Part shown: one piece after another, positions 7,730 to 56,247 of the stretch | Layout: every line of letters begins with the position of its first letter | Position numbering within the stretch: the first letter of the stretch is position 1 | Origin: Phyllobates terribilis | Taxonomy: Eukaryota | DNA length: 64,000 nt | Assembly (NCBI RefSeq): GCF_046119375.1 | Contig: NW_027362769.1 | Coordinates: 132,680,001-132,744,000, forward strand | Direction: 5' to 3' | Made by a program: the position numbers and the translations under genes | The notes under the pieces: model-generated | Seen by the model: only the letters and a program-made list of their open reading frames with translations | Told to the model about the DNA's origin: nothing | The model's database searches: none

Positions 7730-8308
7730 ATAAACCCTAAATACAGCTACACTCTATATACAGCCTATATACAGCTACACCCAATATACAGCTACACGCT
7801 ACATAAAGCTACAACCTACGTATGTACAGCTACACCCTTTGTACAGCTACAGTATATACAGAGCTATACACTATATACAGCCAAAACCTTTACACAGCTA
7901 TACCCTACATACGGCTACATCCTGTATACAGCTACATCCTAAAAAAACAGCAACACTATATTTACAGCCTCAACCTTTATACAGCTACAGGCTATATACA
8001 GCTACACTATATTTACAGCCTCAACCTTTATACAGCTACAGGCTATATACAGCTACACTATATTTACAGCCTCAACCTTTATACAGCTACAGGCTATATA
8101 CAGCTACACTATATTTACAGCCTCAACCTTTATACAGCTACAGGCTATATACAGCTACACTATATTTACAGCCTCAACCTTTATACAGCTACAGGCTATA
8201 TACAGCTACACTATATTTACAGCCTCAACCTATATACAGCTACAGGCTATATACAGCTACACTATATTTACAGCCTCAACCTATATACAGCTACAGGCTA
8301 TATACAGC
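7730..8308. repeat. Same minisatellite, 51-bp (3x17) variant, left of the LTR insertion
   Basis: Unit CTACACTATATTTACAGCCTCAACCTTTATACAGCTACAGGCTATATACAG, about 7 copies from about 7955. A short block of 17-mers also lies at about 7280-7365. Confidence 0.93.
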
Positions 8309-9556
8309 TGACTCGCCCAGGGAGATATGGGGGACTCGGTGCCCGGGCCTTTACCTTCTTGGGATGTCACTGCGGTCGGCTCCCGGGCCCGTACTCTGGG
8401 GTCACTCTTTGAAAGGGGCTTGTCATTCGATGGGATGAATATTAGTTTTGTCTCGTGACGCCACCTGTGGTTCCCGGTAATGGGTACCGGCGCTGCTGCA
8501 GACCTCTGGAGCAGGTGTTAGGGCAGCTGGGTTGGTGCGGCTCTCCACAGGCAGAGCACAGCTCCAGGGCAGTGTAGGTGCAGATGGTGATGCTGGGCGT
8601 TGTAGTGCAGGAGGGATAACGTGGTGGAAATAACTGACAGAAGCAATGGGGTGCAGTCATCCGAGTTTACTCACAGTTATTCAGGTTCTTCAGGTGGCAC
8701 TGTACAGGTGTCAGCCTCTCACGTCGTGCTGCGTTTACCAGGCAGGGGTTCAGCACTCCCTCAAGTATCTCAAGAGCACTTAACGGGACCCCTCTATTTA
8801 TGTTCCTTGCTTAGCCGACTTCCCGCGCTGGGTCTCTCCCTCCTGCCCTGCGCCTCGCCACACAAAGTCCCGAACGGGTACCTTGAGATCCCTCTGGGCA
8901 ACTTGAAGTTCCCGGACCTGACTTGGTGCCCTTTTTGGCGGCTTAGGTGCGAAAGTGGCAACTGCACCCTGAAAGTGCAGAAGCCTCCGGTTTTCCAGCC
9001 GAGACCTGAAGTACCTCTACTAGTCCAGGGACCGATTCCCTTCTTGCGGCCTGATCCCTCTGACGCCTGGCAGAAACGGGTGTACGGGTGCCGTCCTGCA
9101 CTCACCGTACCCACTGGGATCCCTTCTATTTCTGGAGCCTTCCTCCCTGACCCCCCTCTCACTCTTGGGCCTCTCTTACTAGGCCCCACTCGGGAGCAGA
9201 GCTCCTGAAGAGACTCTGCTCCTCTCCTCTTCTCTCTCACTGAATCCACTCACTGAACTCCCACTCTAAGATGGCTTCCCTTAATATACTACTCCTGACA
9301 GTGCTCCCCTGTTCTACGTCCTCCACCCACACCCACTACATGGTTCCCCCTCACTTTTGGTTCCCCCCACTCCAGCCAGGGACGGGGCAGCAGAAGAAGT
9401 ACATAATGCCCTTCCAGCCAGCCTGGAGTAGTATAGTGTTGAGTGCAGATGTTGGGGTCCCGGGCAGTACTCCATCCTTACCTGAGAGAAGGAGATGCCA
9501 CACCTCTGGGTGAGGTGCAGTACCTCTGTGGCGACTGAACCCTCAGGGGCACCACA
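8309..9556 (-). repeat. 3' LTR of the CSD element
   Basis: Direct repeat of 14154-15401; about 43 substitutions counted by eye (about 3.5%). Confidence 0.95.
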
Positions 9557-9570
9557 TTATCCCCCGGTAA
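9557..9570 (-). promoter_or_regulatory. Short polypurine tract abutting the 3' LTR
   Basis: Minus strand TTACCGGGGGATAA immediately before TGTGG; comparable to TTACTAGGGGGGAA at 57438-57451. Confidence 0.65.
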
Positions 9571-10308
9571 AACACAGCACGTCCGCAGGCTGGAACAGAG
9601 TGAAACACGGTATATTACAGACTTGCAATTTTTAGAATGCATTCACATATAAGATTATAAACAAATGCTTTCTTCCCTTTATGGGAGGCACTTTTTCTTA
9701 AACGTTGCTGGTTACTTTTATCAAAAACATTATAAAACTTTCTTCAGATATATAAAACATTTTTCATATAAGACATTCTTCTTAAAGTTACAGTGAATCC
9801 CATAACCAGGTGTCCATCTCACTGGTGAAGGTGCAACATGAGTAGCATGAAGGACCCGTCTGAAAACCCTCAACGTAGGCCCTGGGCGTGGCTACAGGGC
9901 ATAAGTGATCCAGGTGTTGGACCACGTCTTCGGCCACGCCAAACGGGTTTTTGTTCAGTTGTTCAGTGGTCTTTTAATATAAAACCAATAGAGGGCACTT
10001 TAATAAGTGCAACTATTTACGAAGGACAGTTTCTTGGTTATTCACCATCCATAAACTACAGTCTCTATACCCTCACGGGTAACTAAATGCATATATTATT
10101 TTCAGTTCACATAAACAGATTTTTCCCACTGTACCCTGACGGGTAACTATTTTACACAGTGTCCACTCACTCTTACTCAGTAGTGGTGTCCCCGCCTGGG
10201 GTATGCCTGGTTTTTGCCGACTGACCCAGCCGGGTCATCAGCCTCAGGCTGCAGGGGCATGTCCTCCTCCTCCTCGACCAACGCGGGTGGTATGTCCTCC
10301 AAGTGCAT

Positions 10309-10524
10309 CACACGATGCACTTGGAGGACATACCACCCACGTTACCCGTGGTGCCCGGTGTAGGTGACATGGTCACCGGGGTAGAGATTTCGATTGGGAT
10401 GGCCCTGTTCCAGGTGGGGCTCGACATCCCGCCGATTAACAAAAATGTCTCTGTCGAATTGCGGATTACGGATAAAGCCCCATCCGGCTTCCAGATCGAA
10501 CTTCACTATTAGTCCTTCCGCACG
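10309..10524 (-). other. Cold-shock domain (OB-fold nucleic-acid-binding domain) coding segment
   Basis: RAEGLIVKFDLEAGWGFIRNPQFDRDIFVNRRDVEPHLEQGHPNRNLYPGDHVTYTGHHG*RGWYVLQVHRV. RNP1-like AGWGFI (consensus KGFGFI), RNP2-like DIFVN (DVFVH), LxxGxxVxY (L.EG..V.F) and the final beta strand are in canonical order and spacing. No HMM was run. Confidence 0.85.
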
Positions 10525-11733
10525 GGGACTAGGCCGGACGGACTCTGTATGGCGGACGTGAGCTTTGGCAGCCTTGTTCCTGGCCTCCATTTGTTCCCAG
10601 CGCACCCGCCGGGTGCGCTGTTCCTTTGCCAGCTGCAGGAGCTCCTGTCTGCAGAACTCCTCCCTCTGCAGAGCTTGGGCCTGGGTCTCCTGCGGGAACC
10701 ACATCAGGTCCCCCCCCCCCCGGTTGTCCCACCTAAATTCTTCTCCTCCTTGGCGGGCAGCCGGGGGTGCTGGTGCGGGGACTGGAGGAAGTTGTTGCTG
10801 GTCATAATACTTTGCGGACCAGTCAAAAGAGGGCGCTCCATATACCCTCTCGGGTGCCGGGGCTGGCGATTCTGGGAGGGAGCCGAGCAGCAGGTCCGCG
10901 GAGTCGACGCCCGGGGTTGGAGGTTCCGGGCTCAGGAGTTGCTCCAGGGCGTACGCGGCCGGAGGGTTCTATAGGAGGCCCAGGAGCTGGTCAGCGCTAT
11001 CAGCGCCCGGGATAGGGGAACTTCTCCTACCTGCTCCTGTGCTGCACGAGGCCTCCTGGCGTTCTTCCGGCTCCACCGGGGCTGGGTTGCTGCTGGTGGC
11101 ACGCCGTGCTGACTGCCGCCGGGCTGCAATCTTCGCCAGGAGCTCCTCCTTCCATCTTGCGACCACCGCTTGCTGGGCCGTTATAATGAACACGCTCGGG
11201 TTGAGTGGCGTGTGCATGTATATGTAGTGATTCCACTGGACCGTGCCGGAGAGTGAATGCCTGGAGGGGCGTAACTAAGTATCCACCCGATCCGACCAGG
11301 GTCGCACGACGGCATACAACGCCAGTGCACCAAGGAGGAACTGAGCAGAGAGACCAGGTGCTACTCCAGGACAGACCCCGGACACGGCTGTTGACCCACA
11401 CAGGGGAGTACAGGAACAGGCAGGTTAGGCTGGCACACAGACTGCTGGGTATAGGCAGACACGGCTGGTATGCAGACTGGCGGATGCTGGTAAGCACGAC
11501 TGGTATGCAGGCAGAGAGGTACTGGCAGCTACGACAGGTTGGAGCACCGAGTGGATAGGACCCAGTACAGACTGGGACACAGGAACAGACCCGCAGATGC
11601 GGTGGACAAACAGCAGAGTGAGGCCGCCCAGAGTGGCGAGCAAGAGCAGAACAAGACGAGACCGCCTGGAGCGGTGAGCGAGAGAAGAGCAGGACAAGGC
11701 CGCCTGGAGCGGTGAGCGAGAGAGGAGCAGGAC

Positions 11734-11892
11734 GAGACTGCCGAAGCAGCGAGCAAAGGGTCAGAGCAGAGCGAGACTGTCGGAGCAGCGAGCAAAGGGT
11801 CAGAGCAGAGCGAGACTGCCGGAGCAGCGAGCAAAGGGTCAGAGCAGAGCGAGACTGCCGGAGCAGCGAGCAAAGGGTCAGAGCAGAGCGAG
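11734..11892. repeat. 39-bp tandem repeat x4 inside the solo LTR
   Basis: GAGACTGCCGGAGCAGCGAGCAAAGGGTCAGAGCAGAGC repeated four times. Confidence 0.9.
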
Positions 11893-12819
11893 ACCGCAGA
11901 CGCGGTAGACAGGGCTGAGCAGAGCAGAGCCACAGACATGGTAGACAAGGCTGAGCAGAGCGAAACCGCAGACGCGGTAGACAAGTCTGAGCAGAGCAGA
12001 ACCGCAGACGCGGTGGACAAGGCTGAGCAGAGCAAAACCGCAGACGCGGTAGACAAGGCTGAGCAGAGCAGAACCGCAGATGCGGTGGACAAGGCTGAGC
12101 AGAGCAGAACCGCAGACGCGGTGGACAAGGCTGAGCCGAGCAGAACCGCAGACGCGGTAGACAAGGCTGAGCAGAGCAGAACCGCAGACGCGGTGGACAA
12201 GGCTGAGCAGAGCAAAACCGCAGACGCGGTAGACAAGGCTGAGCAGAGCAGAACCGCAGACGCGGTGGACAAGGCTGAGCAGAGCAGAACCGCAGACGCG
12301 GTGGACAAGGCTGAGCAGAGCAAAACCGCAGACACTGTAGACAAGGCTGAGCAGAGCAGAATCGCAGACGCGGTAGACAAGGCTGAGCAGAGCAGAACCG
12401 CAGACGCGGTGGACAAGGCTGAGCAGAGCAAAACCGCAGACGCGGTAGACAAGGCTGAGCAGAGCAGAACCGCAGATGCGGTGGACAAGGCTGAGCAGAG
12501 CAGAACCGCAGACGCGGTGGACAAGGCTGAGCAGAGCAGAACCGCAGACGCGGTAGACAAGGCTGAGCAGAGCAGAACCGCAGACGCGGTGGACAAGGCT
12601 GAGCAGAGCAAAACCGCAGACGCGGTAGACAAGGCTGAGCAGAGCAGAACCGCAGACGCGGTGGACAAGGCTGAGCAGAGCAGAACCACAGACGCGGTGG
12701 ACAAGGCTGAGCAGAGCAAAACCGCAGACGCTGTAGACAAGGCTGAGCAGAGCAGAATCGCAGACGCGGTAGACAAGGCTGAGCAGAGCGAAACCGCAGA
12801 CGTGGTGGACAAGGCTGAG
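11893..12819. repeat. 36-bp tandem repeat, about 25-26 copies, inside the solo LTR
   Basis: ACCGCAGACGCGGTGGACAAGGCTGAGCAGAGCAGA units; no unique spacers. Confidence 0.95.
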
Positions 12820-14126
12820 ATAAATCGCCGAAGAGGTAAACAAAGACAAAGCAAAGGGGACAGGGCTCTGTTCACACGGAACAGAAAGAAAGGCAGAACC
12901 AGATACACACTAGATACTTGCAAAGAAGTAGCGAGAGGACTCCAACTCACAAACGGAAGTACAGCGACAACGAGAAGGAGTTAGGTGCAGGTTCAGACAC
13001 TACAGAAAAAGGGAGCAAACGGACATAAAGGCAAAACAGATAAGAAACTAGGAGACAGTTCTGACAAGAACAGTTACTGCAACAAAATGCAGGAACGAGC
13101 CTAGGTAAAGCCAAGTGCTGGTTCAGACACTGCAGAAAAAGGGAACAAATGGACATAAAGACAAAACAGGTAGGAAGCTAGGAGACAGTTCAGACAGGAA
13201 CTGTACTGCAACAAATACAGGAACGAGTCTGGGTATGCGGCCCCCAGAGGGCGAGACGAACAGGCTAGGAGCTTGTGCAGACAGGCCTGGAAATACAGCC
13301 TCTGGAAGGCAGACGGACAGCTGGCTAGAGGGCACAGACAGGACACAGTTCAGACACGGGAACTGATACCGATAGGCAGGAAACATAGACGGGACCTGGC
13401 ATGTCAGCGACCAGAAGCCAACTGACAGAACACAATGCTCAGGCATGGATTCCAGGGAGGAGCTGGGTTAAATACCAGGTGACAGACAGCAATAGGCTGA
13501 GGACGCACAATGGGTGTGACTGCAGCAGCTACAAGAAGCAGGAAGTGATCGGGCGCCGCCCTTAAGCAGCAGAAACAGAGGCAAGCAGACAGCATGGAGG
13601 GAAGCAGACTGGACTGGAGATCAAGTGCGCGCTCTTGCACAGTGGGAGATGGACCACTATGCAAGGACGCCGCCAGGTATGTTACAGCCGTCTCTACTTG
13701 CTGGCTCAGCTCCTGCACTTCAGCCTGGAGGAATTCGGCATCCTCTGGGGACAGCTTAGATATCGCTCCCTCCAGGGTGAGGGGGGTCGCTAGTTGCTGC
13801 AGGCCAGAGGTGTAGGCTTGGTCCTGGCTTCCGTCCATGCTGGCTGCCGGGTGCAGTCTGTCTAGACTGGTTCCATGGCAGCCTGTTGTCGGTCACTCCT
13901 AGGAGCGGCCCCTCCACTTTGATAGACACATCTACATACATGGTCACTGTTGTTTGGGGCGGGCCTCGCTTTTGGCGCCATTCTGGGACTTGGCCCACGA
14001 TGGGAGGTGATTCCTTGTCGTCTTTGAGTACGCACATAATGGCGCCCGTTCTTCTGGAGCGGGCTCCAAATTCAGTGTAGAAAAACAGTCTCTAGGCGCA
14101 CAATACCCGGTGATAACTGGCACGAA

Positions 14127-14144
14127 ATCCTGTTTGTGACGCCA
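14127..14144 (-). promoter_or_regulatory. Primer-binding site, probably tRNA-Ser(CGA)
   Basis: Minus strand TGGCGTCACAAACAGGAT, 9 nt from the 5' LTR. From memory, a vertebrate tRNA-Ser(CGA) ends ...ATCCTGTTCGTGACG-CCA, giving 17/18 complementarity; the isoacceptor needs a database check. Confidence 0.75.
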
Positions 14145-14153
14145 AGAAGAGTA

Positions 14154-15401
14154 TGACTCGCCCAGGGGGATATGGGGGACTCGGTACCCGGACCTTTACC
14201 TTCTTGGGATGTCACGGCGGTCGGCTCCCGGGCCCGTACTCTGGGGTCACTCTTTAAAAGGGGCTTGTCACTCGATGGGATGAATATTAGTTTTGTCTCG
14301 TGACGCCACCTGTGGTTCCCGGTAATGGGTACCGGCGCTGCTGCAGACCTCTGGAGCAGGTGTTAGGGCAGCTTGGTTGGTGCGGCTCTCCACAGGCAGA
14401 GCACAGCTCCAGGGCAGTGTAGGTGCAGATGGTGATGCTGGGCGTTGTAGTGCAGGAGGGATAACGTGGTGGAAATAACTGACAGACGCAATGGGGTGCA
14501 GTCATCCGAGTTTACTCACAGTTATTTAGGTTCTTCAGATGGCACTGTACAGGTGTCAGCCTCCCACGTCATGCTGCGTTTACCAGGCAGGGGTTCAGCA
14601 CTCCCTCAAGTATCTCAAGAGCACTTAACGGGACCCCTCTCTTTATGTTCCTTGCTTAGCCGACTTCCCGCGCTGGGTCTCTCCCTCCTTCCCTGCGCCT
14701 CGCTACACAAAGTCCCGAACGGGTACCTTGAGATCCCTCTGGGCAACTTGAAGTTCCCGGACCTGACTTGGTGCCCTTTTCGGTGGCTTAGGTGCGAAAG
14801 TGGCAACTGCACCCTGAAAGTGCAGAAGCCTCCGGTTTTCCAGCCGAGACCTGAAGTAACTCGACTAGTCCAGGGACCGGTGCCCTTCTTGCAGCCTGAT
14901 CCCTCTGACGCCTAGCAGATTCGGGCGTACGGGTGCCGTCCTGCACTCACCGTACCCACTGGGATCCCTTCTATTCCTGGAGCCTTCCTCCTTGACTCCC
15001 CTCTCACTCTTGGGCCTCTCTTACTAGGCCCCACTCGGGAGCAGAGCTCCTGAAGAGACTCTGCTCCTCTCCTCTTCTCTCTCACTGAATCCACTCACTG
15101 AGCTCCCACTCTAAGATGGCTTACCTTATTATACTACTCCTGACAGTGCTCCCCTGTTCTACGTGCTCCACCCACACCCACTACATGGTTCCCCCTCACT
15201 TTTGGTTCCCCTCACTCTAGCCAGGGAAGGGGCAGCAGAAGAAGTGCATAATGCCCTTCCAGCCGGCCTGGAGTAGTGTAGTGTTGAGTGCAGGTGTTGG
15301 GGTCCCGGGCAGTACTCCATCCTTACCTGAGAGAAGGGGATACCACACCTCTGGGTGAGGTGCAGTACCTCTGTGGCGACTGAACCCTCAGGGGCGCCAC
15401 A
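14154..15401 (-). repeat. 5' LTR of the CSD element
   Basis: Direct repeat of 8309-9556, adjacent to the PBS. Confidence 0.95.
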
Positions 15402-15750
15402 CAGCTACACTATATTTACTGCCTCAACCTATATACAGCTACAGGCTATATACAGCTACACTATATTTACAGCCTCAACCTATATACAGCTACAGGCAGG
15501 CTATATACAGCTACACTATATTTACAGCCTCAACCTATATACAGCTACAGGCTATATACAGCTACACTATATTTACAGCCTCAACCTTTATACAGCTACA
15601 GGCTATATACAGCTACACTATATTTACAGCCTCAAGCTATATACAGCTACACGCTATATACAGCTACACTATATTTACAGCCTCAACCTATATACAGCTA
15701 CAGGCTATATACAGCTACACTATATTTACAGCCTCAACCTATATACAGCT
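15402..15750. repeat. Continuation of the 51-bp minisatellite to the right of the insertion
   Basis: Same unit as 7955-8308, resuming exactly after the TSD. Confidence 0.93.
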
Positions 15751-39499: not shown

Positions 39500-40206
39500 T
39501 TATATTGTATTTAAATACCTGGTTAGAGGAAAGTCTCTGTTAGGTGTTAGGTGTGTTGCTGATGTATATCCAGCCTTCAGTTGTTTGCTTGCACAGTTGT
39601 ATGCATATGCCATTGACTTCCATTGTGTATATAATATATCATGGGGCCGAATATATACTAAAAGGTCACTCTTTTACTTTAAATTTGGCCATAACGAAAA
39701 AACATAATGGAGAAAAGAAGGAGTCACCTCGGAGCGTTGTATTAGATATATGACTTTAACAGACCATTTTAAAATTATGCTTATAACATCTCTTAGACTG
39801 GATGAGGCTTGTGTGTTTTGGAAATTAGAAGTATGCAACCATTCTGAATTAGATTTTCAGAGTAAGTACACCAGCCTCATCAGGTGTAAGACATGAATTT
39901 AATGTATAGAGTTTAGATTGTGAAATTGGTGACAGATCTGCATTGGGTATTATACTTGAATTGTATGAATACAAGCAATAGGAATACAAGCTGATTGGCC
40001 GGCGGCTTGTATAGTTATTGCGGTGCTGGGAGCCAATGGCTCTCTGCCCCACAATACATTTCACTTGAATGTGTTTAGCTGTAAACAGTGCTGGCGTTGG
40101 TGGACCCCCTGACTCTGCGCACCCTCTACGACCATGATGTTTACGCCCCCTGCTGGTTGCTTTATTGGAGCCATTTATGTTTTACTCTGCAACAATGCAA
40201 CATTTC

Positions 40207-41160
40207 TGTAGCGTCGGCGTCCCTGCCCCCTGCTAGGCAGGGACGCCGTTCCCCTCACCTCTCCGCTCCGTGCCCGGCGGCTTCCCCCCGCTCTGCTGGC
40301 AGCGCGCGCTGCTTCCCGGCCCCTGTGCTTAGGGCGCGCGCGCTCCCCCTCTCTTAAAGGGGCCGCGCGCGCCGTCCTAAGGAGTCCCCGGCCAATGGCT
40401 GGAGGACCTCTCCATATATAAGGCACCTCCTCCAAAATGGAGGTGCCCGAGCAATGTTGTTGTGAAGCCTTCACTCTGCTTCAGCCCTCATGTCCCGTTA
40501 CCAGTTACCTGCCAGTCACCTGCCAGATTCCTGCTTGTTACCTGCCAGTCACCTGCCTGATTCCTGCCTGTTACCTGCCAGTCATCTGCCAGATTCCTGC
40601 TTGATACCTGCCTGATATCCGCTTACCAGCTTGCAAGCCTGCGGTCCGACGGTCTGCTCTCCGACGCCTGTCTGTCTATGGACCAGCCTGCCCGCTCACC
40701 TGGGAGCGCTCACCTGTTACTTGCCTGCTAGCCTACCTGGAGGCTCTGCCGTCACTTGCCGTGACCACCTGCCTGTCCAGAGACTCTTGCCCGCTCACCT
40801 GGGAGCGCTCACCTGCTACCTGCCTGCTAGCCTACCTGGAGGCTCTGCCGTCACTTGCCGTGACCACCTGCCTGTCCAGAGACTCTTGCCCGCTCACCTG
40901 GGAGCGCTCACCTGCTACCTGCCTGCTAGCCTACCTGGAGGCTCTGCCGTCACTTGCCGTGACCACCTGCCTGTCCAGAGACTCTCGCCCGCTCACCTAG
41001 GAGCGCTCACCAGCCACCAGCCCGCTGCCCTTCTACCCAGAGACTGTCCCTGTCACTTGCCGTGACTGCCTGCCCGTCTTCCCTGGGAGCCACCCGCTTC
41101 CTCACAAGGACTGCCCCCTTGTATAGTTGCACAGAGGTTCCACCTCCCAGACCCGTTACA
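40207..41160 (+). repeat. 5' LTR with TATA box (40415-40421) and internal 87-bp tandem repeats
   Basis: Direct repeat of 45365-46324; about 3.5 copies of an 87-bp unit at about 40690-41020. Confidence 0.95.
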
Positions 41161-41162
41161 GT

Positions 41163-41172
41163 TTGCTCGGGC
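41163..41172 (+). promoter_or_regulatory. Self-priming-type PBS (TTGCTCGGGC)
   Basis: Not a TGG-starting tRNA PBS. It is the exact reverse complement of GCCCGAGCAA at 40445-40454, 30 nt after the TATA start. Confidence 0.8.
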
Positions 41173-41173
41173 C

Positions 41174-42115
41174 ATGGAACCCGGTGGCCCCCAGATCTCC
41201 GATCTGCACCAGGAAGTCTTACGTCAGAAAACTCAGCAGGAGGTGGTACTGCCCTATCTACGGTCCGTTAACTCTCGTCTAGGCGCATTGTGTGACTCGT
41301 CTATGTCTACCTCTGGTCCAGCTGTGCCCATTCCTGCGGTACCGCAATCCAGTCCCTTCATGGTACCCGACTATGGACCTCGGCTTCTGGCACCTCCACG
41401 CTTTGCCGGCGAACCTACTTTAGCTCGGGGTTTCATAAACCAGTGCACCCTGCACTTTGAGCTATTGGCATACCAGTTCATCTCTGACCGGGCCAAGGTG
41501 GCCTTCATCATGTCCCATCTCACTGGGGAGGCACTGGCATGGCTAAATCCCCTGTGGGAGAGAGGGGATCCCCTGGTGTCCGACCTGCCATCTTTCCTCG
41601 CTGCTTTCCGGAAAGTCTTCGATGAACCTGGACGGAAAACCTCTTCTGCCTCCTCTCTGCTACGTCTCCGCCAAGGGAGTCTCACCGTGGGCCAATATGC
41701 CATACGGTTCCGCACCCTCGCTTCTGAGCTTGCCTGGGAAAATGAGGCTCTGGTGTCCGTCTTCTGGGAGGGTCTTTCCGGTCGGATTAAGGACGAGTTA
41801 GCTGGTCGGGACATTCCTACCACTCTGGATGACCTGGTGTCACTAGTTACCCGAATTGGCATCCGGTTCCAAGAACGTGCCAAAGAGACTACCTGGGAGA
41901 AAGACTTTTCTTGCTCTGCTCCTACGTCCCTGAGACCTGCCTCTCAACCAGTCACTCCGCGGGCGCTCTCGCCTGAACCTATGCAGATCGACCAGACCAA
42001 GATGGTCAGATCTCGCCAAGAATCTCGCCGAGCCGAGGGAAGCTGTTTCTATTGTGGCAGTAAGGAGCACTTCATCCGTTCCTGCCCGGAAAAGCCGGGA
42101 AATGCCAGTGTCTAG
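41174..42115 (+). CDS. gag: Gag (Ty3-type capsid plus CCHC zinc knuckle), 313 aa, intact
   Basis: PPRFAGEP...FINQCTLHF...[16 protein letters not shown]; [19 protein letters not shown]; [14 protein letters not shown]. Confidence 0.95.
42097..42103 (+). promoter_or_regulatory. Probable -1 ribosomal frameshift site GGGAAAT
   Basis: pol is in the -1 frame relative to gag and is open from 42064. The heptamer resembles the G GGA AAC slippery site of PEG10/sushi elements. Confidence 0.65.
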
Positions 42116-45100
42116 GACCGCTCGGAGAGGTCGTCCTAGACAAAAGTAAGCCCTCTCCGTCTCTGACTTTACCGGTCTCTATTGCTTGGGGAGAAAACCG
42201 TCACTTTGAACTCGCCCACCTGGATTCTGGAGCTGCTGGAAACCTCATCTCCCAGTCTCTGGTAGAGAGATACCGTATTCCCACCAAGTCCCTGGCTGAA
42301 CCATTAGCAGTCGCCTCCGTGGATGGAAGACTTCTCTCGGAGACCATCCTGCTCGTCACTGAACCCATAACCCTGCAGGTGGGAATGCTGCACTCTGAGG
42401 AAATCTCATTCCATGTGCTGTCCGGATTTTCTCACTCCCTGTTGCTAGGTCTACCTTGGCTCCAGACACACGAACCCGTATTGAACTGGCGATCCGGTGA
42501 AGTACTCCGATGGGGTCCAGACTGCCATAGGACCTGCCTGGTTCCGGTCCGCCCAGCTCGCCCTCCGCCAACTCCAGCTAATTTACCAGGTCTCCCAGCT
42601 CCTTACTGGCCCTATGCGGACGTCTTCGGTAAGAAGGAAGCAGAGACGTTGCCACCCCATAGGCCATATGACTGCCCGATCGACCTGGTACCTGGCTCCA
42701 CTCCTCCCCGTGGGCGTATCTACCCGTTGTCTGCAGCCGAGACCCGGGCCATGTCTGAGTACATTGAAGAGAATCTGGCTAGGGGATTTATCCGAAAATC
42801 TACCTCCCCGGCTGGAGCCGGATTCTTCTTTGTCAAAAAGAAAGACGGCTCGCTACGTCCCTGTATTGACTACAGAGGACTCAATCTCATCACAGTTAAA
42901 AATAAATACCCCCTTCCGCTCATCTCTGAGTTATTTGATCGTCTTAAAGGCGCCAGGATCTTCTCCAAGCTGGATCTACGCGGAGCATATAACCTGGTCC
43001 GTATCCGTCAGGGAGATGAGTAGAAAACAGCATTTAATACCTGGGACGGACACTATGAGTACCGGGTGATGCCCTTCGGTCTCTGCAATGCTCCCGCCGT
43101 CTTCCAAGAACTGGTCAACGACATCTTCCGTGACCTTCTTTACTCCTGCGTGGTGGTATACCTGGACGACATCTTGGTCTTCTCTCCGGATCTTCCCACA
43201 CACCGGAGGGATGTTCGTCAGGTCCTGCTTAGGCTCAGGCAGAACCACCTCTATGCTAAATACGAGAAGTGCCTTTTTGAGCAGACCTCTCTTCCTTTCC
43301 TGGGCTATGTTATCTCCCAGACAGGCTTGCGAATGGATCCCGAGAAGCTCTCTGCTGTCCTAAAGTGGCCCCGTCCGGAGGGCTTGAAGGTGATACAACA
43401 ATTCCTGGGCTTCGCTAATTACTATCGTCTCTTCATTCCTCACTTCTAGTCACGGACTGCGCCCATATCTGCGCTCACCCGTAAGGGAGCAAATCCCAAG
43501 GTATGGTCATCCGAAGCTGAGGAGGCCTTCCTTTCCCTGAAACAAGCCTTCTCCTCTGCCCCTGTGCTGCACCGTCCGGACTGCAACAAACAGTTCTACC
43601 TGGAGGTTGATGCCTCCTCCTCTGGAGCCGGAGCGGTGCTCACCCAAAAGTCTTCCTCCGGGAGAATGGTAACCTGCGGCTTTTTCTCTAAAATCTTCTC
43701 CTCCTCTGAGCGCAATTACTCCATTGGAGACCGAGAACTGCTTGCCGTTAAATTGGCGCTGGAGGAATGGCGTTACCTGCTTGAAGGGGCTCTATACCCG
43801 GTGATCATCTACACGGATCACAAGAACCTGGCATATCTCCAAAATGCCCAGAGACTTAATCCACGTCAGGCCCGGTGGTCTTTGTTTTTTGCCCGCTTCG
43901 ATTTCATCCTTCATTTCCGCCCGGCGGACAAAAATGTCAAAGCTGATGCCTTGTCCCGATACTTCCTGTCCTCCGACCAAGAGGAGGAGCCTATGCACAT
44001 TATCGACCCCTCCAAGGTGATGAATGTGGCCCCCTTGGATTTGACTCGTCTTCCACCCGGCAAGACGTTCGTGGCGCCTCCAGACCGTGAGAGGGTTCTT
44101 CGCTGGGGTCATTCTTCTAAACTAGCCGGCCATGCCAGCCAAAAGAAGACCTTCCTACTCATTTCCCGGCATTACTGGTGGCCTACCCTGCGTAAGGATG
44201 TGGTAGACTTCGTCTCTGCCTGTTCATCTTGTGGCCGCAACAAAGTTCCCAGACACTTACCAGCTGGTCATCTCCTGCCGCTTCCCATACCTGTTGCCCC
44301 GTGGCAACACATCGCTATGGACTTCATTACCGATCTTCCTGTCTCTGCCTGGTGTACTGTCATTTGGGTGGTCGCGGAGCGCTTCTCTAAAATGGCCCAC
44401 TTCATTCCCCTGCCTGGTCTTCCGTCTGCACCTGAGCTGGCTAAGGACTTTATTCGCCATATCTTCCGTCTCCATGGCCTACCCCTCCACATCGTGTCGG
44501 ATCGAGGGGTTCAGTTTACCTCACGCTTCTGGAGAGCCACATGTAAACTGCTGGACGTCACCCTGGACTTCTCCTCCGCTTACCACCCTCAGTCCAATGG
44601 TCAAGTGGAGCGGATCAATCAGATCCTTACCAGCTATCTCCGGCACTTTGTTAATGCCCACCATTCTGATTGGGTGGACCTCCTTCCTTGGGCCGAGTTC
44701 TCTTATAATAACCACGAGAGCGAATCCTCTTCCAAGTCCCCATTCTTTATTGTCTATGGCCAGCACCCCCGGATTCCGTTTCCTGTCTCCGCTTCTGTGG
44801 ACAACCCTGCCGCGCAGTCTCTTGTCAGCGAGTTTTCTACTATTTGGGAGAGTACTAGGTCTGCACTTCTTCAGTCCTCCGAGCGGATGAAGCGATATGC
44901 TGATAAGAGACGTCTGGATCCGCCTCAATTCCGTCCGGGAGACAAGGTTTGGCTCTCTTCCAAACATGTACGGCTCAAGATACCCTCCTACAAGTTAGGT
45001 CCTCGCTTCATCGGTCCTTTCGAAATCCTCAGGCAAATTAATCCAGTGGCCTACAAATTAAAACTCCCGGCCACCTTACGGATTCCCAACTCCTTCCACG

Positions 45101-45369
45101 TATCTCTCCTCAAACCCGTTGTCTTTAACTCTTTTTCCAACAATCCAGGTACTCCTCCTGCTCCGGTTTCCGCTGAAGACGTCTTTGAGGTAGAGAGTAT
45201 TCTGGCCACTAAGAGGGTAAGAGGAAAGACCTTTTTTTTGGTAGATTGGAAGGGGTTTGGTCCTGAGGAGAGAACATGGGAGCCCCGGGAGAACATCCAT
45301 GCCCCTCTCATCCTTGCTAAATTTCTCTCTGGCCTAAAAAAGGGGGGGCCTAAAGGGGGGGTACTGTAG
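42097..45369 (+). pseudogene. pol: Pol (aspartic protease, RT, RNase H, integrase, chromodomain) with two nonsense codons
   Basis: LDSGAAGN; [13 protein letters not shown]; EVDASSSGAGAVL, DRELLA; HxxxH..CxxC, MDFITDLP, SDRG, GQVERIN, GDKV, FEVESIL..WKGFGPEERTWEP. All in one frame, with TAG at 43021-23 and 43447-49. Confidence 0.96.
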
Positions 45370-46324
45370 CGTCGGCGACCCTGCCCCCTGATAGGCAGGG
45401 ACGCCGTTCCCCTCACCTCTCCGCTCCGTGCCCGGCGGCTTCCTCCCGCTCTGCTGGCAGCGCGCGCTGCTTCCCGGCCTCTGTGCTTAGGGCGTGCGCG
45501 CGCTCCCCCTCTCTTAAAGGGGCCGCGCACGCGGTCCAAAGGAGTCCCCGGCCAATGGCCGGAGGACCTCTCCATATATAAGGCACCTCCTCCAAAATGG
45601 AGGTGCCCGAGCAATGTTGTTGCAAAGCCTTCACTCTGCTTCAGCCCTCAGGTCCTGTTACCAGTTACCTGCCAGTCACCTGCCAGATTCCTGCTTGTTA
45701 CCTGCAAGTCACCTGCCTGATTCCTGCCTGTTACCTGCCAGTCATCTGCCAGATTCCTGCTTGATACCTGCCTGATATCCGCTTACCAGCTTGCAAGCCT
45801 GCGGTCCGACGGTCTGCTCTCCGACGCCTGTCAGTCTGTCTATGGACCAGCCTGCCCGCTCAGCTGGGAGCGCTCACCTGTTACTTGCCTGCTAGCCTAC
45901 CTGGAGGCTCTGCCGTCACTTGCCGTGACCACCTGTCTGTCCAGAGACTCTTGCCCGCTCACCTGGGAGCGCTCACCTGCTACCTGCCTGCTAGCCTACC
46001 TGGAGGCTCTGCCGTCACTTGCCGTGACCACCTGCCTGTCCAGAGACTCTTGCCAGCTCACCTGGGAGCGCTCACCTGCTACCTGCCTGCTAGCCTACCT
46101 GGAGGCTCTGCCGTCACTTGCCGTGACCACCTGCCTGTCCAGAGACTCTCGCCCGCTCACCTAGGAGCGCTCACCAGCCACCAGCCCGCTGCCCTTCTAC
46201 CCAGAGACTGTCCCTGTCACTTGCCGTGACTGCCTGCCCGTCTTCCCTGGGAGCCACCCGCTTCCTCACAAGGACTGCCCCCTTGTATAGTTGCACAGAG
46301 GTTCCACCTCCCAGACCCGTTCCA
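45365..46324 (+). repeat. 3' LTR of the chromovirus
   Basis: Direct repeat of the 5' LTR, followed by TSD ATTTC. Confidence 0.95.
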
Positions 46325-46352
46325 ATTTCACAGGAAACTATGTGTCTCAGAC

Positions 46353-48293: not shown

Positions 48294-48845
48294 TTAATTC
48301 TCAACCGACATAAGTAAGATGACCTCTGATATAGGCCTAATGAAAGATTTGTGGTCACCTTGCTTCGTGACTGTTACGTCCACCTTGCGCACCTTGCCAT
48401 CTTCACTTGGAAAGGTTTTCGATATAAGTCCCATAGGCCATTCGTTTCTTTCCACTTTCTGGTCTCTCATGAGAACAAGATCTCTTACTTGTAAGCTAGG
48501 TTTAACTTGTTGCCATTTTCTCCGTCGTTGAAGAAGGTTAAGGTAATCCCTCTTCCATCTACTTCAGAAACAGTTAGCCAGATGTTGCACGTGTTTCCAA
48601 CATCTCTGATATTTGTTACCGGACACAGAGTCTTCAGGTGGGTTAGGAACGGTTCCAAGTTTCTGAGTGAGGAGAGTTGCTGGTGTAAGAATAGCAGGAG
48701 ATTCTGAATCCGTAGATATGGGAACAAGTGGTCTTGAGTTTACAATAGCCGATACTTCTGCTAAGAAAGTGGTTAAGGTCTCATGAGTGAGTCTCGAGAG
48801 GTTTGAGTCCATCAACATAGACTCCAGTATCCGACGAGTGATGCC
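48294..48845 (-). pseudogene. pol: BEL pol, integrase C-terminal part
   Basis: ITRRILESML...LTTFLAEVSAIVNSRPL...LTPATLL; ends ...RPISEVILLMSVEN*. Confidence 0.9.
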
Positions 48846-49927
48846 TGTTATGCACACGCCCGGGCTAAGCGGCGTGTGCGTGTGATTGGTAGTGATTCCA
48901 CTGGACCGTGCCGGAGAGTGAATGCCTGGAGGGGTGTGACTAAGTATTCACCCGATCCGACCAGGGTCGCACGACGGCATACGACGCCAGTGCACCAAGG
49001 AGGAACCGAGCAGAGGGACCAGGTGCTACTCCAGGACAGACCCCGGACACGGCTGTTGACCCACACAGGGAAATACAGGAACAGGCTGGTAGGCTGGCAC
49101 ACAGACTGGAGGGTATAGGCAGGCACGACTGGTATGCAGGCAGGCGGGTATGCAGGCAGGGGGGTAAAGGCAAGCACAGCTAGAGTGCAGACAGGGAGGC
49201 ACTAGCAGGTAGGAACACAGGCGGGATAGGACCCAGTACACACCGGGACTCAGGAACAATACAGGCAGAGGGTTACAGGCAAGCACAGCTAGAGTGCAGA
49301 CAAGGCTGAGCAGGGAGGACAGGGCTCTGTTCACACGGAACAGACAGGAAGGGAAAGACAGAGCCAGATACTCACACAGTACTTGCAGAGACAACAAGCA
49401 GGAGTTAGGTACGAGTTCAGACTCTGCAGAAAAAGGAAGGGAACGGACATAGAGGCAAAACAGGTAAAGGACAGGAGAGAGTTCAGACTGGAACTGAGTG
49501 TACGGAGGAGACCGACACTGCAGAGGGATACAGGAGCGGGTCTGGGAATACGGCCCCCAGAGAGGCGGAACGAACAGGCAAGGAGCGTGTTCAGACAGGA
49601 CAGACCAGACACAGGAGCGGGTCTAGGAAATCGGCCACTAGAAGGCGAAAGGAACAGGCTAGGAGCGTGTTCAGACAGGACAGACAAGAGAACACAGAAA
49701 GGAGTCAGTTCAGACACGGGAGCTGATACCGCAAAGCAGGAGACATACAGGACTCAGTTCAGACACGGGAGCTGATACCGCAAAGCAGGAGACATACAGG
49801 ACTCAGTTCAGACACGGGAACTGATACAAAAAGCAGGAGACAAGAGACGGGACCTGGCACCTTCAGAGTGCAAGCACACACTGAAGGAAACACTATGCTC
49901 AGGCAGGGATAGAAGGGAGCTGCTGAG

Positions 49928-52003
49928 CTATATACCAAGTGACAGACAGCAATAGGCTGAGGACGCACAAGGGGTGTGACCCACAGCAGGTACAAAAGGC
50001 AGGAAGTGATCGGGCGCCGCCCTTAAGCAGCAGAAACAGACACAAACAGACAGCATGGAGGGAAGCCAGAGAGACATTCTGGACAGGAGATCAAGTGCGC
50101 CCTCTTGCACAGTGGGAGATGGACCACCATGCAAGGACGCCGCCAGGTATGTTACAGTACCTCCCCCCTTACGCCCCCTCTTCTTCAGGCCTGCCAGAAT
50201 CTTCCGCAGGGAATTCGAGGGCCAGTCGTTCACTGGGTTGGAGGGGGACAGAGACTTAAGGGTAATCTCTGCTTCGAGGTACATCTTGTCAAGCTCACAG
50301 GAAGAAATAGACGGGTTATCACGTACATAATGAGGAAAAGTCACTGTCTCTTTGTTATCTGGTGGTATCCCGGAGGATTCAGGAAACAACTGGAGGTCCT
50401 CCGCCGGGTCAGAAGAGTGCAGAGGCTCAGAGAAAACAACTGCTTCAGAGTACACTAGGTCGGACTCACTGGAGGAAGCAGGCGAGGTATCGGGTACCGA
50501 GTATAGGAAAGTCTCTGTCCATTCACCACCAGGTGGCACCCCGAAGGGTTCTGGAGACAGCTGGCGGTCCTCCGCCTGGTCAGAGGGGTGTAGAGACTCA
50601 CGGGTAACCTCTGCTTCAGAGTACACTAGGTCGGACTCACTGGAGGAAGCAGGCGAGGTATCGGGTACCGAGTATAGGAAAGTCTCTGTCCATTCACCAC
50701 CAGGTGGCACCCCGAAGGGTTCTGGAGACAGCTGGCGGTCCTCCGCCTGGTCAGAGGGGTGTAGAGACTCACGGGTAACCTCTGCTTCAGAGTACACTAG
50801 GTCGGACTCACTGGACGAAGCAAGCGAGGTATCAGATCCAGGATATAGGAAAGTCTCTGTCCATTCACCACCAGGTGGCACCCCGAAGGATTCTGAACAC
50901 AACTGGAGGTCCTCCGCCTGGTCGGAGGGGTGTAGAGACTCAGGAGTAACCTCTGCTTCGGAGTACACTAAGTTGGACTCACTGGACGAAGCGAGCGAGG
51001 TATCAGGTACAGAGTATAGGAGAGTATCTGTCCTTTCGCTACCAGGTAGCACCCCGAAGGGTTCAGGAGACAACTGGAGATCCTCCGCCTGGTCGGAGGG
51101 GTGTAGAGACTCGGAGGTAACTACCACTTTGGGGTACCCATTGTCAGGCTCACAGGACGAAGCGGACAAAGTATTGAGTACCGGGTGTAGAGAAGTCTCT
51201 CTCCATTTGTCATCGAGTGGTATCCCGGAGGGTTCAGGAGGCAACAGGGGATCCTCCGCCAGGTAGTAGAGGTGCACAGACTCTGAGGTAACCACAGCTT
51301 TGGAGCATCCTTGGACATGCACACCGGTTAAAGAGAAAGAAGCATCTGATGCCGGGTGCAGGAAGTTCTCCTGTGTGGAGTCTGGATGGGCAGAAGTCTC
51401 TTCGGCCAGGAGAACTGGTGCACTACCCACGCACATTACCCATTGGGGTTTCTCCGGGATACAGGGAGATGAAGCTTCAGTAGGGACTCCAAGGCTGGGG
51501 TCAGGAGGTCTCAGGGAGGACAGACCCTGGCGTGACGGCTTGCCTCTAAGTCTAGCACGTCTGGACTGCCTCTTGAGGTTGAGAGAAGTATTCCGGAAAG
51601 CGTAGTCACCCTGTGAGGATTCTGGGTGGGCAGTAGTCTCATTGGGCTGGAGGACTATTGCGCTACCCACACACATTACCCGTCGGGGCTGCTCCGGGAT
51701 ATTGGGAAGTGAAGCTTCAGCAGGGGCTTCAGAGTTAGGGTCCTCGAAGACCATACAAAAGGCCACCAGGAAGGCCTGCAGGTCAAGGATGACAGGATCC
51801 CATGCTTCCCATAGGGGGGTGACCCATTTCAAGGCATCACCCGCTAGGTAGTCAATCATAAAGGCCACTTTAGCCCAATCGGAAGGAAAATAGAGAGGGT
51901 AGGCCTTAAAGTGTAGCATGCATTGCTCCACAAATGCACGACACTGTCTTGGATCCCCATAGTAACGTGGCGGATCCGCAGGAACGAGGGCTGATAGATC
52001 CAT
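49928..52003 (-). CDS. 691-aa protein: Ty3 gag N-terminal capsid domain (RTL1/LDOC1-like) followed by acidic Ser/Glu/Pro-rich 57-aa repeats; reads 229 nt into the 3' LTR
   Basis: The first 90 aa or so (PPRYYGDPRQCRAFVEQCMLHF...KVAFMIDYLAGDALKWVTPLWE..DP...LQAFLVAFCMVFEDP) align by eye with gag at 41174. The ORF is uninterrupted over 2076 nt. Confidence 0.8.
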   Translation of the reverse strand: MDLSALVPADPPRYYGDPRQCRAFVEQCMLHFKAYPLYFPSDWAKVAFMIDYLAGDALKWVTPLWEAWDPVILDLQAFLVAFCMVFEDPNSEAPAEASLPNIPEQPRRVMCVGSAIVLQPNETTAHPESSQGDYAFRNTSLNLKRQSRRARLRGKPSRQGLSSLRPPDPSLGVPTEASSPCIPEKPQWVMCVGSAPVLLAEETSAHPDSTQENFLHPASDASFSLTGVHVQGCSKAVVTSESVHLYYLAEDPLLPPEPSGIPLDDKWRETSLHPVLNTLSASSCEPDNGYPKVVVTSESLHPSDQAEDLQLSPEPFGVLPGSERTDTLLYSVPDTSLASSSESNLVYSEAEVTPESLHPSDQAEDLQLCSESFGVPPGGEWTETFLYPGSDTSLASSSESDLVYSEAEVTRESLHPSDQAEDRQLSPEPFGVPPGGEWTETFLYSVPDTSPASSSESDLVYSEAEVTRESLHPSDQAEDRQLSPEPFGVPPGGEWTETFLYSVPDTSPASSSESDLVYSEAVVFSEPLHSSDPAEDLQLFPESSGIPPDNKETVTFPHYVRDNPSISSCELDKMYLEAEITLKSLSPSNPVNDWPSNSLRKILAGLKKRGRKGGGTVTYLAASLHGGPSPTVQEGALDLLSRMSLWLPSMLSVCVCFCCLRAAPDHFLPFVPAVGHTPCASSAYCCLSLGI
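50230..51310 (-). repeat. 171-bp (57-aa) coding tandem repeat, 6 full copies plus 1 partial
   Basis: Period measured from CGGACTCAC at 50461 and 50632; the two central copies are identical and outer copies diverge. Bounds approximate. Confidence 0.92.
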
Positions 52004-52135
52004 CTGGACGGGTGCGTAATTCGCCTGGAACTCAGCTAAAGGGGGAAAAAAAAATTATTTATTTTATTTTAATGCATGTATTCGCTGGAAAAACTTCTCA
52101 AAGAGCGAAAGCCGTGGGGCTCAACGGGAACCATG

Positions 52136-52145
52136 GCCTGAGCAT
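52136..52145 (-). promoter_or_regulatory. Self-priming-type PBS (ATGCTCAGGC)
   Basis: Complementary to minus-strand GCCTGAGCAT at 53206-53197, 30 nt after the start of TATATA (53236-53231). Confidence 0.8.
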
Positions 52146-53458
52146 GCTGTTATGCACACGCCCGGGCTAAGCGGCGTGTGCGTGTGATTGGTAGTGATTC
52201 CACTGGACCATGCCGGAGAGTGAATGCCTGGAGGGGCGTGACTAAGTATTCACCCGATCCGACCAGGGTCGCACGACGGCATACGACGCCAGTGCACCAA
52301 GGAGGAACCGAGCAGAGGGACCAGGTGCTACTCCAGGACAGACCCCGGACACGGCTGTTGACCCACACAGGGAAATACAGGAACAGGCTGGTAGGCTGGC
52401 ACACAGACTGGAGGGTATAGGCAGGCACGACTGGTATGCAGGCAGGCGGGTATGCAGGCAGGGGGGTAAAGGCAAGCACAGCTAGAGTGCAGACAGGGAG
52501 GCACTAGCAGGTAGGAACACAGGCGGGATAGGACCCAGTACACACCGGGACTCAGGAACAATACAGGCAGAGGGTTACAGGCAAGCACAGCTAGAGTGCA
52601 GACAAGGCTGAGCAGGGAGGACAGGGCTCTGTTCACACGGAACAGACAGGAAGGGAAAGACAGAGCCAGATACTCACACAGTACTTGCAGAGACAACAAG
52701 CAGGAGTTAGGTACGAGTTCAGACTCTGCAGAAAAAGGAAGGGAACGGACATAGAGGCAAAACAGGTAAAGGACAGGAGAGAGTTCAGACTGGAACTGAG
52801 TGTACGGAGGAGACCGACACTGCAGAGGGATACAGGAGCGGGTCTGGGAATACGGCCCCCAGAGAGGCGGAACGAACAGGCAAGGAGCGTGTTCAGACAG
52901 GACAGACCAGACACAGGAGCGGGTCTAGGAAATCGGCCACTAGAAGGCGAAAGGAACAGGCTAGGAGCGTGTTCAGACAGGACAGACAAGAGAACACAGA
53001 AAGGAGTCAGTTCAGACACGGGAGCTGATACCGCAAAGCAGGAGACATACAGGACTCAGTTCAGACACGGGAGCTGATACCGCAAAGCAGGAGACATACA
53101 GGACTCAGTTCAGACACGGGAACTGATACAAAAAGCAGGAGACAAGAGACGGGACCTGGCACCTTCAGAGTGCAAGCACACACTGAAGGAAACACTATGC
53201 TCAGGCAGGGATAGAAGGGAGCTGCTGAGCTATATACCAAGTGACAGACAGCAATAGGCTGAGGACGCACAAGGGGTGTGACCCACAGCAGGTACAAAAG
53301 GCAGGAAGTGATCGGGCGCCGCCCTTAAGCAGCAGAAACAGACACAAACAGACAGCATGGAGGGAAGCCAGAGAGACATTCTGGACAGGAGATCAAGTGC
53401 GCCCTCTTGCACAGTGGGAGATGGACCACCATGCAAGGACGCCGCCAGGTATGTTACA

Positions 53459-55093
53459 ATGCCTATCATTCTTTCCCATGATCCGCCCATATGGGAAGCG
53501 TGAGGAGGGTTGAAGACCCATGAACAGCCATTGTTTGCCAAGAAATCCTGGGCTGCAGTTGCATCTAATTGTAGTTCTCGACAGGCACCTACAAAGTTTG
53601 TTCCACAATCAGACCTTATTTGCTTGACTGGTCCTCATATGGCGAGGAATCGTCTTAAGGCATTGATAAAACTGGAGAAATCCATTGATTCTATTACTTT
53701 TATGTGTATTGTTCGTACACTCATGCATGTGAACAACACTGCCCAACGTTTACTTTGGGCATGTCCGCCTCTGGTCCTACGTGCAGTGACTTCCCAAGGG
53801 CCAAAAACGTCCAAACCAATATAGGTAAACGGTGGTTCTGTGCTTGTCCTGTCAGCAGGCAAATCAGACATCTGTTGCTGTTGCAGTTTTCCTCTTGCCT
53901 TGCGACACTGAACACAAAGATGAATTAAATGGGAAACTTGTCTCTTTGCTCCCACAATCGAGAGGCCTGCAACTCTTAAGGCACCTTCAGTGAAGTGTCT
54001 GCCTTGATGTTTGACCTTTTCATGGTAATGTCGTATTAGCAGAGTGGTGATGTGGTGATGGCCAGGAATGATTAGAGGATTCTTTTCTGCCTCCTCCAAC
54101 TTGGCTTTGTTTAAACGACCACCGACTCTCAGTAAACCCTTCTTGTCAATTACGGGATTTAAGTCGACAATAGGGCTGTTTTTAAGGACATCTTGCTTTT
54201 TAAGTATACATTCCATTTCCTTGTGAAAAACATTCTGCTGCACATTATGTATCACAAACAGTTCACTCAGAGCAATGTCTTCTGCAGAGAGAGGCTTATG
54301 ACAGATGTGCCAACCGCGACACTCAGCGTTACTGTCCTTATTGCAGTAGCATTGTGCGATGTGGACTAACCTTGCAATAGCACGAACAAGCCTTATCCAT
54401 CTGGAGAAGCAATCAAATAGCCGACAGTCCAAGCCATCCTTTTCCTTGGAATTGGTGATGAGGGTACTGATGTCAGGATGGATCTCTGGGTCAACGTCTG
54501 GATCCTGAAGACTGAAGCTGTCTTCAACGGCAGTCTCTTCACATTGGCCGCAAAGGAACTCCGGTCCTGTTAACTAAGAAGAGTTTGCAAAGGCACCAAC
54601 AGACACTGGCCTAGTAGCAAGGTCAGCAGGGTTAAGATGGGATGGAACATACTGCCATTGCTCAGGTTTAGAGGATTTCCTGATCCTTTCAACGCGGTTA
54701 CTGACATAGACATAGAAGCGTTTTGTCTGGTTGTATATGTAGCCCAGAACATCCTTGCAGTCTGTGTAGAATCTTGTGTCATCCACATGAATAGCTAGTT
54801 CACTCTGTATGAAGTCTGCAATCTCGATGGCTAGTACAGCCCCACAGAGCTCAAGTCTGGGTATGGTATGCTCAGGTTTAGGAGCCAATTTAACCTTTCC
54901 AAATAGAAATCCAACATGGGCTTCATTGTTAGAGTCTATAACCTTCAAATAGGCAACAGCTGCAATGGCTTCAGTAGAGGCGTCAGAGAATGTATGGATC
55001 TCTTTCCCTTGACTCGTAGCAAGAGATGCTGGAGTGTAACAACGTGGTATGTGGATTTTATCTAAGGCACAAAGAGATTCCCTCCATGACTTC
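53459..55093 (-). pseudogene. pol: BEL pol, RNase H (Pao peptidase A17 region), zinc finger and integrase core
   Basis: HTFSDASTEAIAAVAY..KVKLAP....IPRLELCGA; HYHEKVKHQG..CVQC; IGLDVFGP; HMGGSWERMIG. Confidence 0.92.
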
Positions 55094-56229: not shown

Positions 56230-56247
56230 TGGCGTCACAAACAGGAT
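56230..56247 (+). promoter_or_regulatory. PBS TGGCGTCACAAACAGGAT (probably tRNA-Ser(CGA))
   Basis: 4 nt after the 5' LTR; identical to the PBS of the element at 8309-15401. Confidence 0.78.

Follow-up and report, generated by a model that had tools for sequence, protein, structure and literature searches.

How does a retrotransposon that encodes none of its own replication enzymes come to carry one gene of an altogether different kind? This is the question raised by positions 8309 to 15401 of a 64,000-nucleotide stretch of the genome of the poison frog Phyllobates terribilis (contig NW_027362769.1, positions 132,680,001 to 132,744,000; hereafter the window), where an earlier note, made from the sequence alone, had noticed an element bounded by long terminal repeats (LTRs) with a cold-shock-domain (CSD) protein as its only cargo. 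What lies there is one dead member of a non-autonomous Ty3/Gypsy LTR family. It belongs to a very large radiation of such elements, 3.6 to 5 kb long and estimated at some 30,000 copies, in which a single open reading frame (ORF) is under strong purifying selection at the level of the lineages, strongest on the CSD.

A non-autonomous element with complete cis signals

The window copy reads on the minus strand. Its two LTRs, both with TG...CA termini, differ by 43 mismatches (96.55% identity, Kimura two-parameter distance 0.035), and a 4-bp target-site duplication (TSD), CAGC, stands on either side (8305-8308 and 15402-15405), within a 51-bp satellite. The primer-binding site (PBS) matches, at all but one position, the 3' terminus of a gene for tRNA-Ser(CGA), which a pattern search found once in the genome, and the polypurine tract (PPT) reads GGGGGATAA. 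With LTR pair, TSD, tRNA PBS and PPT, the cis anatomy of an LTR retrotransposon is complete, just as the earlier note had described it. The gag, protease (PR), reverse transcriptase (RT), RNase H (RH) and integrase (IN) that define an autonomous Ty3/Gypsy element are missing, also as claimed, the CSD being the only Pfam match in the window pieces. A second PBS-like motif, TGGCGTCACGA, lies inside both LTRs (8452-8462 and 14297-14307, minus strand), some 150 nt before their 3' end.

A single gene under purifying selection

Selection was measured in family A, to which the window copy belongs, on copies chosen by their 3' untranslated region (UTR) alone, 24 of 29 being kept while five covered less than half of the ORF. 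Changes of the CpG type were excluded, and variants were counted as shared (in at least two copies) or private (in a single copy). In the CSD the shared variants comprise 41 synonymous and 9 non-synonymous changes, against 35.4 of the latter expected, which yields a ratio of non-synonymous to synonymous rates (omega, or dN/dS) of about 0.09 (p 2e-14); the ratio is 0.34 in the helix that precedes the CSD, and the N-terminus has 0.61. For private variants it lies at 0.83-0.91. Shared variants being constrained and private ones neutral, the protein must have been needed while lineages replicated, and it decays once a copy has inserted. Over helix and CSD, the signal is found only in the sense frame (0.18) and in the antisense frame that has the same third positions (0.33), the remaining four frames giving 1.5-4.0. 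Family E, represented by 24 of 26 copies picked by distant CSD similarity, displays 46 synonymous to 21 non-synonymous shared variants in the CSD (omega 0.19), and between subfamilies (B1/B2/B3, A1/A2) dS amounts to 0.9-1.5 for a dN of 0.07-0.14. A further ATG, upstream and in frame, lengthens the ORF by 86 codons, homologous in families A and B, under weak selection (p 0.04-0.06).

Families and their share of the genome

The CSD is no accident of one copy. In the 10.57 Gb of the genome surveyed, a first look returned 37,060 candidates for the C-terminal part of the ORF and 33,380 for PF00313, these being candidates, not copies. Sister copies have the layout of the window element minus a later insert, LTR, 2.1 to 2.6 kb, LTR, and no pol was found between their LTRs. 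Subfamilies are many, each with its own LTR, with LTR pairs up to 100% identical and 4-bp TSDs. Family A has LTR pairs mostly 91-97% identical, and none of its 24 UTR-picked copies is unbroken. Family B, the tRNA-Ser PBS of which (presumably that of Ser(IGA)) differs from that of A, has LTR pairs 99.4-100% identical, and its young copies are unbroken across 480 codons in 26 cases out of 29. Family C is intermediate. In family D the ORF is cut to a CSD of about 100 residues plus tail, behind a new ATG (L060, L073, L075, L203), while in family E the LTR is unrelated and the CSD only about 40% identical to that of the other families.

The PBS allows a census. That of family B occurs exactly 69,769 times in the genome; the first 30 of these Ser(IGA) sites on C1 comprise 15 family B elements, assigned by DNA similarity, one that is weakly B/C-like and 14 that bear gag, with no ORF-less derivative among them. 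For the window-type PBS, the first 30 of 8,117 sites divide into 21 with gag, two with pol, five with a CSD and two unassigned. CSD-bearing elements form the majority of the non-autonomous elements in this census. If the 4-Mb sample is typical, about 35,000 CSD elements with the Ser(IGA) PBS (roughly 22,000-48,000) would make up 1-2% of the genome.

Some loci stand apart. CSD matches about 3.63 kb from one another at G000:C3:355463560-355471124 and C4:51300692-51308241 are as expected for tandem LTR-internal-LTR arrays. The family B subfamilies represented by L082 and L083 are near-identical in their 5' part while dS is about 0.9 in the helix-CSD part, a pattern that suggests recombination between co-packaged RNAs; in L291 an N-terminal fragment of gag is mixed with CSD sequence. 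Around a group of three divergent ORFs with a CSD, spaced 17-19 kb from one another (L205, L206 and L207, G000:C4:791.48-791.52 Mb), no matching LTR pair was seen; the RNP2 His is retained in the two unbroken ones, and all three are possibly old or domesticated copies. The top PF00313 matches, at C1:734.4 Mb, are not members of the family: they correspond to a processed retrocopy of the host gene CSDE1, split by other retroelements (L097 and L098, G000:C1:734.44 Mb). Spliced CSDE1 exons were found at C2:702.8 Mb (L057, L058), and a decayed YBX-like pseudogene in L071.

Complete Gypsy elements as likely helpers

An element without enzymes has to borrow them. The same genome contains complete elements of 7.8-8.5 kb that encode a gag of the Retrotrans_gag/PNMA-like kind, which in most copies has a CCHC motif, followed by PR, RT, RH and IN. 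They have the PBS of the window element, its spacer, its 4-bp TSD, parts of its 3' UTR and a similar LTR 3' end (Table 1). A second complete group has the LTR end, spacer and PBS of family B and is equally young (LTRs 98.6-99.9% identical). These common cis signals make the CSD elements a non-autonomous derivative of a Ty3/Gypsy lineage. A CSD was found in none of 20 gag- or pol-bearing stretches with a Ser PBS, a sample that leaves room for a rare carrier, and the CSD elements do not appear to have arisen by deletion from an autonomous element with a CSD. The common cis signals, the lack of a CSD in the 20 helpers, the young TSD-flanked copies and the equally young helpers together make it likely, as far as sequence comparison goes, that complete, CSD-less Gypsy elements mobilise the CSD elements in trans; the earlier note had already suggested that RT and IN may be borrowed. 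Of ten stretches selected by PNMA gag, nine are centred on Gypsy elements without Ser PBS and are not the helper. A hairpin before the PPT was no more stable than shuffled sequences in 6/6 cases.

Among the outcomes that the earlier note had listed as fatal to its proposal, those tested were a lack of CSD match, a one-off copy, a dN/dS of about 1 and a CSD-bearing autonomous parent, and none of them was observed.

A cold-shock domain of the Y-box type

In families A to C the protein is made, in this order, of a conserved N-terminal helical region, a Pro-rich linker, a DLMGF motif, a helix of 45 residues, the CSD and an acidic tail, the N-terminal parts diverging fast between families. With its stop read as X, the window CSD matches PF00313 at E=2.7e-5 and 24.4 bits, and one family A copy at 22.6 bits, both below the 27-bit cut-off; sister segments match in 20 cases out of 20 (best E 2.4e-11), and copies of families B and C reach 38-40 bits, above the cut-off. 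The domain proposed by the earlier note is therefore present. An AlphaFold2 model, which suggests an OB-type fold, has a pLDDT of 74 with four strands called, and its top Foldseek matches, CspA, CRHSP-24 and YBX2, have a probability of 1.0, yet with E values of 1.3e-3 or weaker.

A CSD profile of 16 rows spanning all families matches YB-1 and YBX2 at 56-58 bits, gap-free over 71 columns, as against at most 40 bits for bacterial Csps, 19.6 for Lin28 and 5-15 for the CSDE1 domains of the P. terribilis genome. The closest profile match and the loop length are those of the CSD of Y-box proteins; the analogy with Lin28, drawn in the earlier note, has to be abandoned, all the more since no CCHC motif was flagged in the CSD frames. 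With the YB-1 contact residues numbered as in PMC7498358, the F74 site is F in 15/16 rows, the F85 site aromatic in 16/16 and the K118 site basic in 13/16. Two observations weaken the case for a Y-box origin: a single young copy scores 28 bits with a bacterial Csp and 26 with YB-1, and the phylogeny called for by the earlier note, obtained with 27 rows (no intact host YBX among them), has long branches that do not separate out the donor. It is for these two reasons that descent of the CSD from a host Y-box protein, as argued from profile scores, is likely but short of proven.

The other parts of the protein have few relatives. The N-terminal helix has weak, mixed matches only in Pfam and PDB, homology with the coil of the helper Gag is rejected (hhalign probability 0.5%), and a predicted complex of the two scored 0.01, which gives no usable answer. 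When the full-length family A protein was searched, none of 8000 candidates reached E<=0.001, and the ESM Atlas gave leads below 0.9 only. A search of 1.84 billion representatives gave single-domain homologues, all uncharacterised, from Phyllobates, two species of Ranitomeya and Anomaloglossus, and two further searches gave poison-frog proteins and one weak metagenome match only. Their absence beyond poison frogs is weak evidence, as repeat ORFs are often masked and genomic context was not seen. Three annotated poison-frog gene models (P0152, P0153, P0154) fuse the element ORF to other domains; these fusions are probably annotation artefacts or exonised copies.

The window copy and its neighbours

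In the window the ORF is split by an insert flanked by GCCGT (11177-81 and 13687-91). Because of this duplication, and because its two ends are 83-85% identical to those of the LTRs of another element of the window, at 48845-53464, it is a solo LTR, as the earlier note had proposed, enlarged by arrays of 36, 38, 39 and 130 bp. The single stop recognised at the time, inside the CSD, is real; a second one, in the second piece of the ORF, had escaped notice. Nor does the frame end in the CSD, present as it is: about 44 residues follow, up to a stop at 10177-79, and at the other end a deletion of about 59 bp at 13872/3, by comparison with sister copies, has cut off the upstream ATG (14037) from the ORF.

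Table 1. Parts of the CSD element in the window
Feature	Position	Strand	Remark
5' LTR, 1248 bp	14154..15401	-	3' ~270 nt 70-76% identical to complete Gypsy LTRs
PBS for tRNA-Ser(CGA), one mismatch	14127..14144	-	9 nt past the LTR
Upstream ATG and leader	13839..14037	-	shares the ORF's frame in sister copies; weak selection signal
ORF piece 1: second ATG into conserved N-terminal helical region	13692..13838	-	
Nested solo LTR, unrelated Gypsy family, internal tandem arrays	11182..13686	.	5-bp TSD GCCGT
ORF piece 2: end of N-terminal helix, Pro-rich linker	10711..11181	-	in-frame stop 10969-71
Conserved DLMGF motif and charged helix (~45 residues)	10522..10710	-	
Y-box-type cold-shock domain	10309..10521	-	in-frame stop 10342-44
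Acidic tail, frame end	10177..10308	-	overlaps private inverted (fold-back) duplication 10280-10343
3' UTR up to polypurine tract	9557..10176	-	parts match the 3' UTR of complete elements at 68-74% in sister copies
3' LTR, 1248 bp	8309..9556	-	adjoins TSD CAGC 8305-8308

The element at 48845-53464 has LTRs 99.7% identical, of a family related to the nested solo LTR, and a gag-like DUF4939 frame. The window also contains a Gypsy element at 40206-46328 (plus strand), which has frames for pol and for a gag with Ty3 capsid and CCHC, as well as LTRs that are 97.5% identical with a 99-bp array, and, at 53638-62524 (minus strand), fragments of what we take, by its motifs, to be a BEL/Pao-type element, interrupted by an insertion at 55094 that is considered below.

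What the protein may do

We see an even chance that the CSD protein binds the RNA of its own element, protecting it and feeding it to the particles of helper Gypsy elements. The full-length RNA would be messenger and genome alike, and the newly made protein would bind the very RNA that encoded it, as ORF1p of L1 is known to do. Binding would protect or store this RNA in the germ line, in the manner of Y-box messenger ribonucleoproteins; the bound RNA would be favoured for uptake into helper Gag particles, and the RT and integrase of the helper would complete the copying. Everything beyond a selected protein with a CSD, including RNA binding, translation and preference for action in cis, we infer. 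For an element that borrows its enzymes and is selected along each lineage a benefit in cis is the simplest account, as binding in cis would keep the ORF under selection in each of these lineages. Host YB-1 aids RNA metabolism and virion output of human immunodeficiency virus (HIV), according to PMC6040738. In four sequencing runs of uncertain type, contigs cover a family B element with no splice-like joint, which cannot show transcription.

Several points weigh against such a role. The stacking set W65/F74/F85/H87 is incomplete, Trp being found at the W65 site in 0/16 rows and His at the H87 site in 2/16; canonical Y-box binding would be altered by this loss, and could be weak. Helper Gag, with its own CCHC knuckle, needs in principle no additional protein for RNA uptake. 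In addition, even a protein acting in trans could stay under selection where only a few copies are active in each cell. Finally, the window itself harbours, at 55094-58589 (plus strand), a non-autonomous relative that shares the PBS and has a 4-bp TSD and LTRs 96% identical but no CSD, its internal part being similar to the leader and 3' UTR of the helper.

Binding in cis may be set, more tentatively, in a wider picture. The CSD elements might be satellite-like LTR parasites that gave up gag and pol and use a Y-box-derived protein in cis to take over Gypsy particles, with at least two unrelated LTR types, rivalling their helpers in copies and filling 1-2% of the genome.

The protein might instead act locally in trans against the host, competing with host Y-box proteins or acting as their decoy, or serving as a sponge for small RNAs such as tRNA fragments or PIWI-interacting RNAs that block these elements. 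The loss of W65 and H87, together with an aromatic residue gained at the E121 site in 16/16 rows, would fit a changed specificity. The N-terminal parts diverge quickly between families, and Gypsy RNA is reported as abundant in poison-frog ova (PMC6278860). A benefit shared by all should, however, favour ORF-less copies, yet CSD elements dominate the non-autonomous census; the complete elements, for their part, do without the domain in all 20 stretches examined. This makes the anti-host role unlikely.

The version put forward in the earlier note, a nucleocapsid-like chaperone that assists tRNA annealing and strand transfer within the particle, appears decidedly doubtful to us: the helper Gag, with which the N-terminal helix shows no homology, already provides a CCHC nucleocapsid, the tail after the CSD is acidic, not basic, in families A-C, and of the four residues that canonically stack on bases two are gone, even though the cis signals of reverse transcription are intact, CSDs bind both single-stranded RNA and DNA (PMC7498358) and YB-1 influences early steps of HIV replication (PMC6040738). 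It is quite improbable that the protein boosts transcription by binding its own LTR, as single-stranded DNA or at Y-box sites, since neither ATTGG nor CCAAT occurs in the 5' LTR of the window and a transcription factor would serve all copies in trans, whatever the 45 nM affinity of the YB-1 CSD for single-stranded DNA (PMC7498358). That the host selects a few domesticated source genes, dispersed copies being passive by-products, we hardly believe, for while the cluster L205-L207 would suit it, with no LTR pair seen and two unbroken ORFs with their His, the many subfamilies with their own LTR, dS near 1, LTR pairs up to 100% identical and 4-bp TSDs point to selection along element lineages.

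Known captures and what they mean

The earlier note knew of no CSD-carrying LTR family. Capture of a CSD by LTR elements is already published. Bird endogenous retroviruses (ERV-A/B, ERV-G), as described in PMC12287698, likewise took up PF00313: 46 retroviral copies, found via their RT, carry convergently captured CSDs at varied positions, and the authors consider this repeated capture adaptive. The frog elements differ in being Ty3/Gypsy, without gag or pol, in running to tens of thousands, and in that selection on the CSD has been measured. In the Nile rat, Ybx3-like copies with MERVK26-int and RMER13B flanks (147 dispersed BLAT hits; PMC9641963) are likewise a Y-box CSD amplified in an LTR context; these stay close to canonical Ybx3, and the authors see in them retrogenes plus segmental duplication, whereas the frog elements retained the CSD alone, some 30-35% identical to YB-1, within a new protein. 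Non-autonomous LTR elements of the LARD type also harbour foreign DNA between their LTRs and move in trans (PMC6431247), but, instead of passive DNA, the frog elements carry a single ORF that strong purifying selection maintains; where PMC6431247 deals with ORF capture and LARD-type elements, CSDs do not appear.

Closer at hand, the PNMA/Retrotrans_gag-type Ty3/Gypsy elements with a tRNA-Ser PBS (L131-L138, L300-L310) have the same PBS, a 4-10 nt spacer, a 4-bp TSD, a G-rich PPT and an LTR 3' part 70-80% similar to that of the CSD elements, and differ in encoding gag-PR-RT-RH-IN and no CSD; they are likely both helpers and LTR donors. With the CSD of YBX1 and YBX2, its best profile match, the element domain has in common 71 gap-free columns and the F74, F85 and K118 sites; it has lost those of W65 and H87, gained the aromatic at E121, and is set among flanking helices and a Pro-rich linker. 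Literature searches returned no description of the frog family, and cold shock is unmentioned in the main text of the poison-frog genome papers PMC11152451, PMC6278860 and PMC12208295 (term look-up, supplements excluded). What appears to be new, as far as these searches go, is a radiation of non-autonomous Gypsy elements with a CSD gene as their sole, strongly selected cargo.

Non-autonomous LTR elements are usually seen as non-coding passengers. Here, a captured RNA-binding domain of host type has been kept at an omega of about 0.1, in elements that equal their helper in number. The poison-frog genomes contain much repeat content that is unclassified (PMC12208295), and the family gives a name to a sizeable, RT-less portion of them; it also accounts for CSD gene models and fusions that turn up spuriously when such genomes are annotated. 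Together with the captures in bird retroviruses and in the Nile rat, it suggests that LTR retroelements are repeatedly limited at a step that calls for Y-box function, a step that becomes testable on a domain tuned by the elements themselves.

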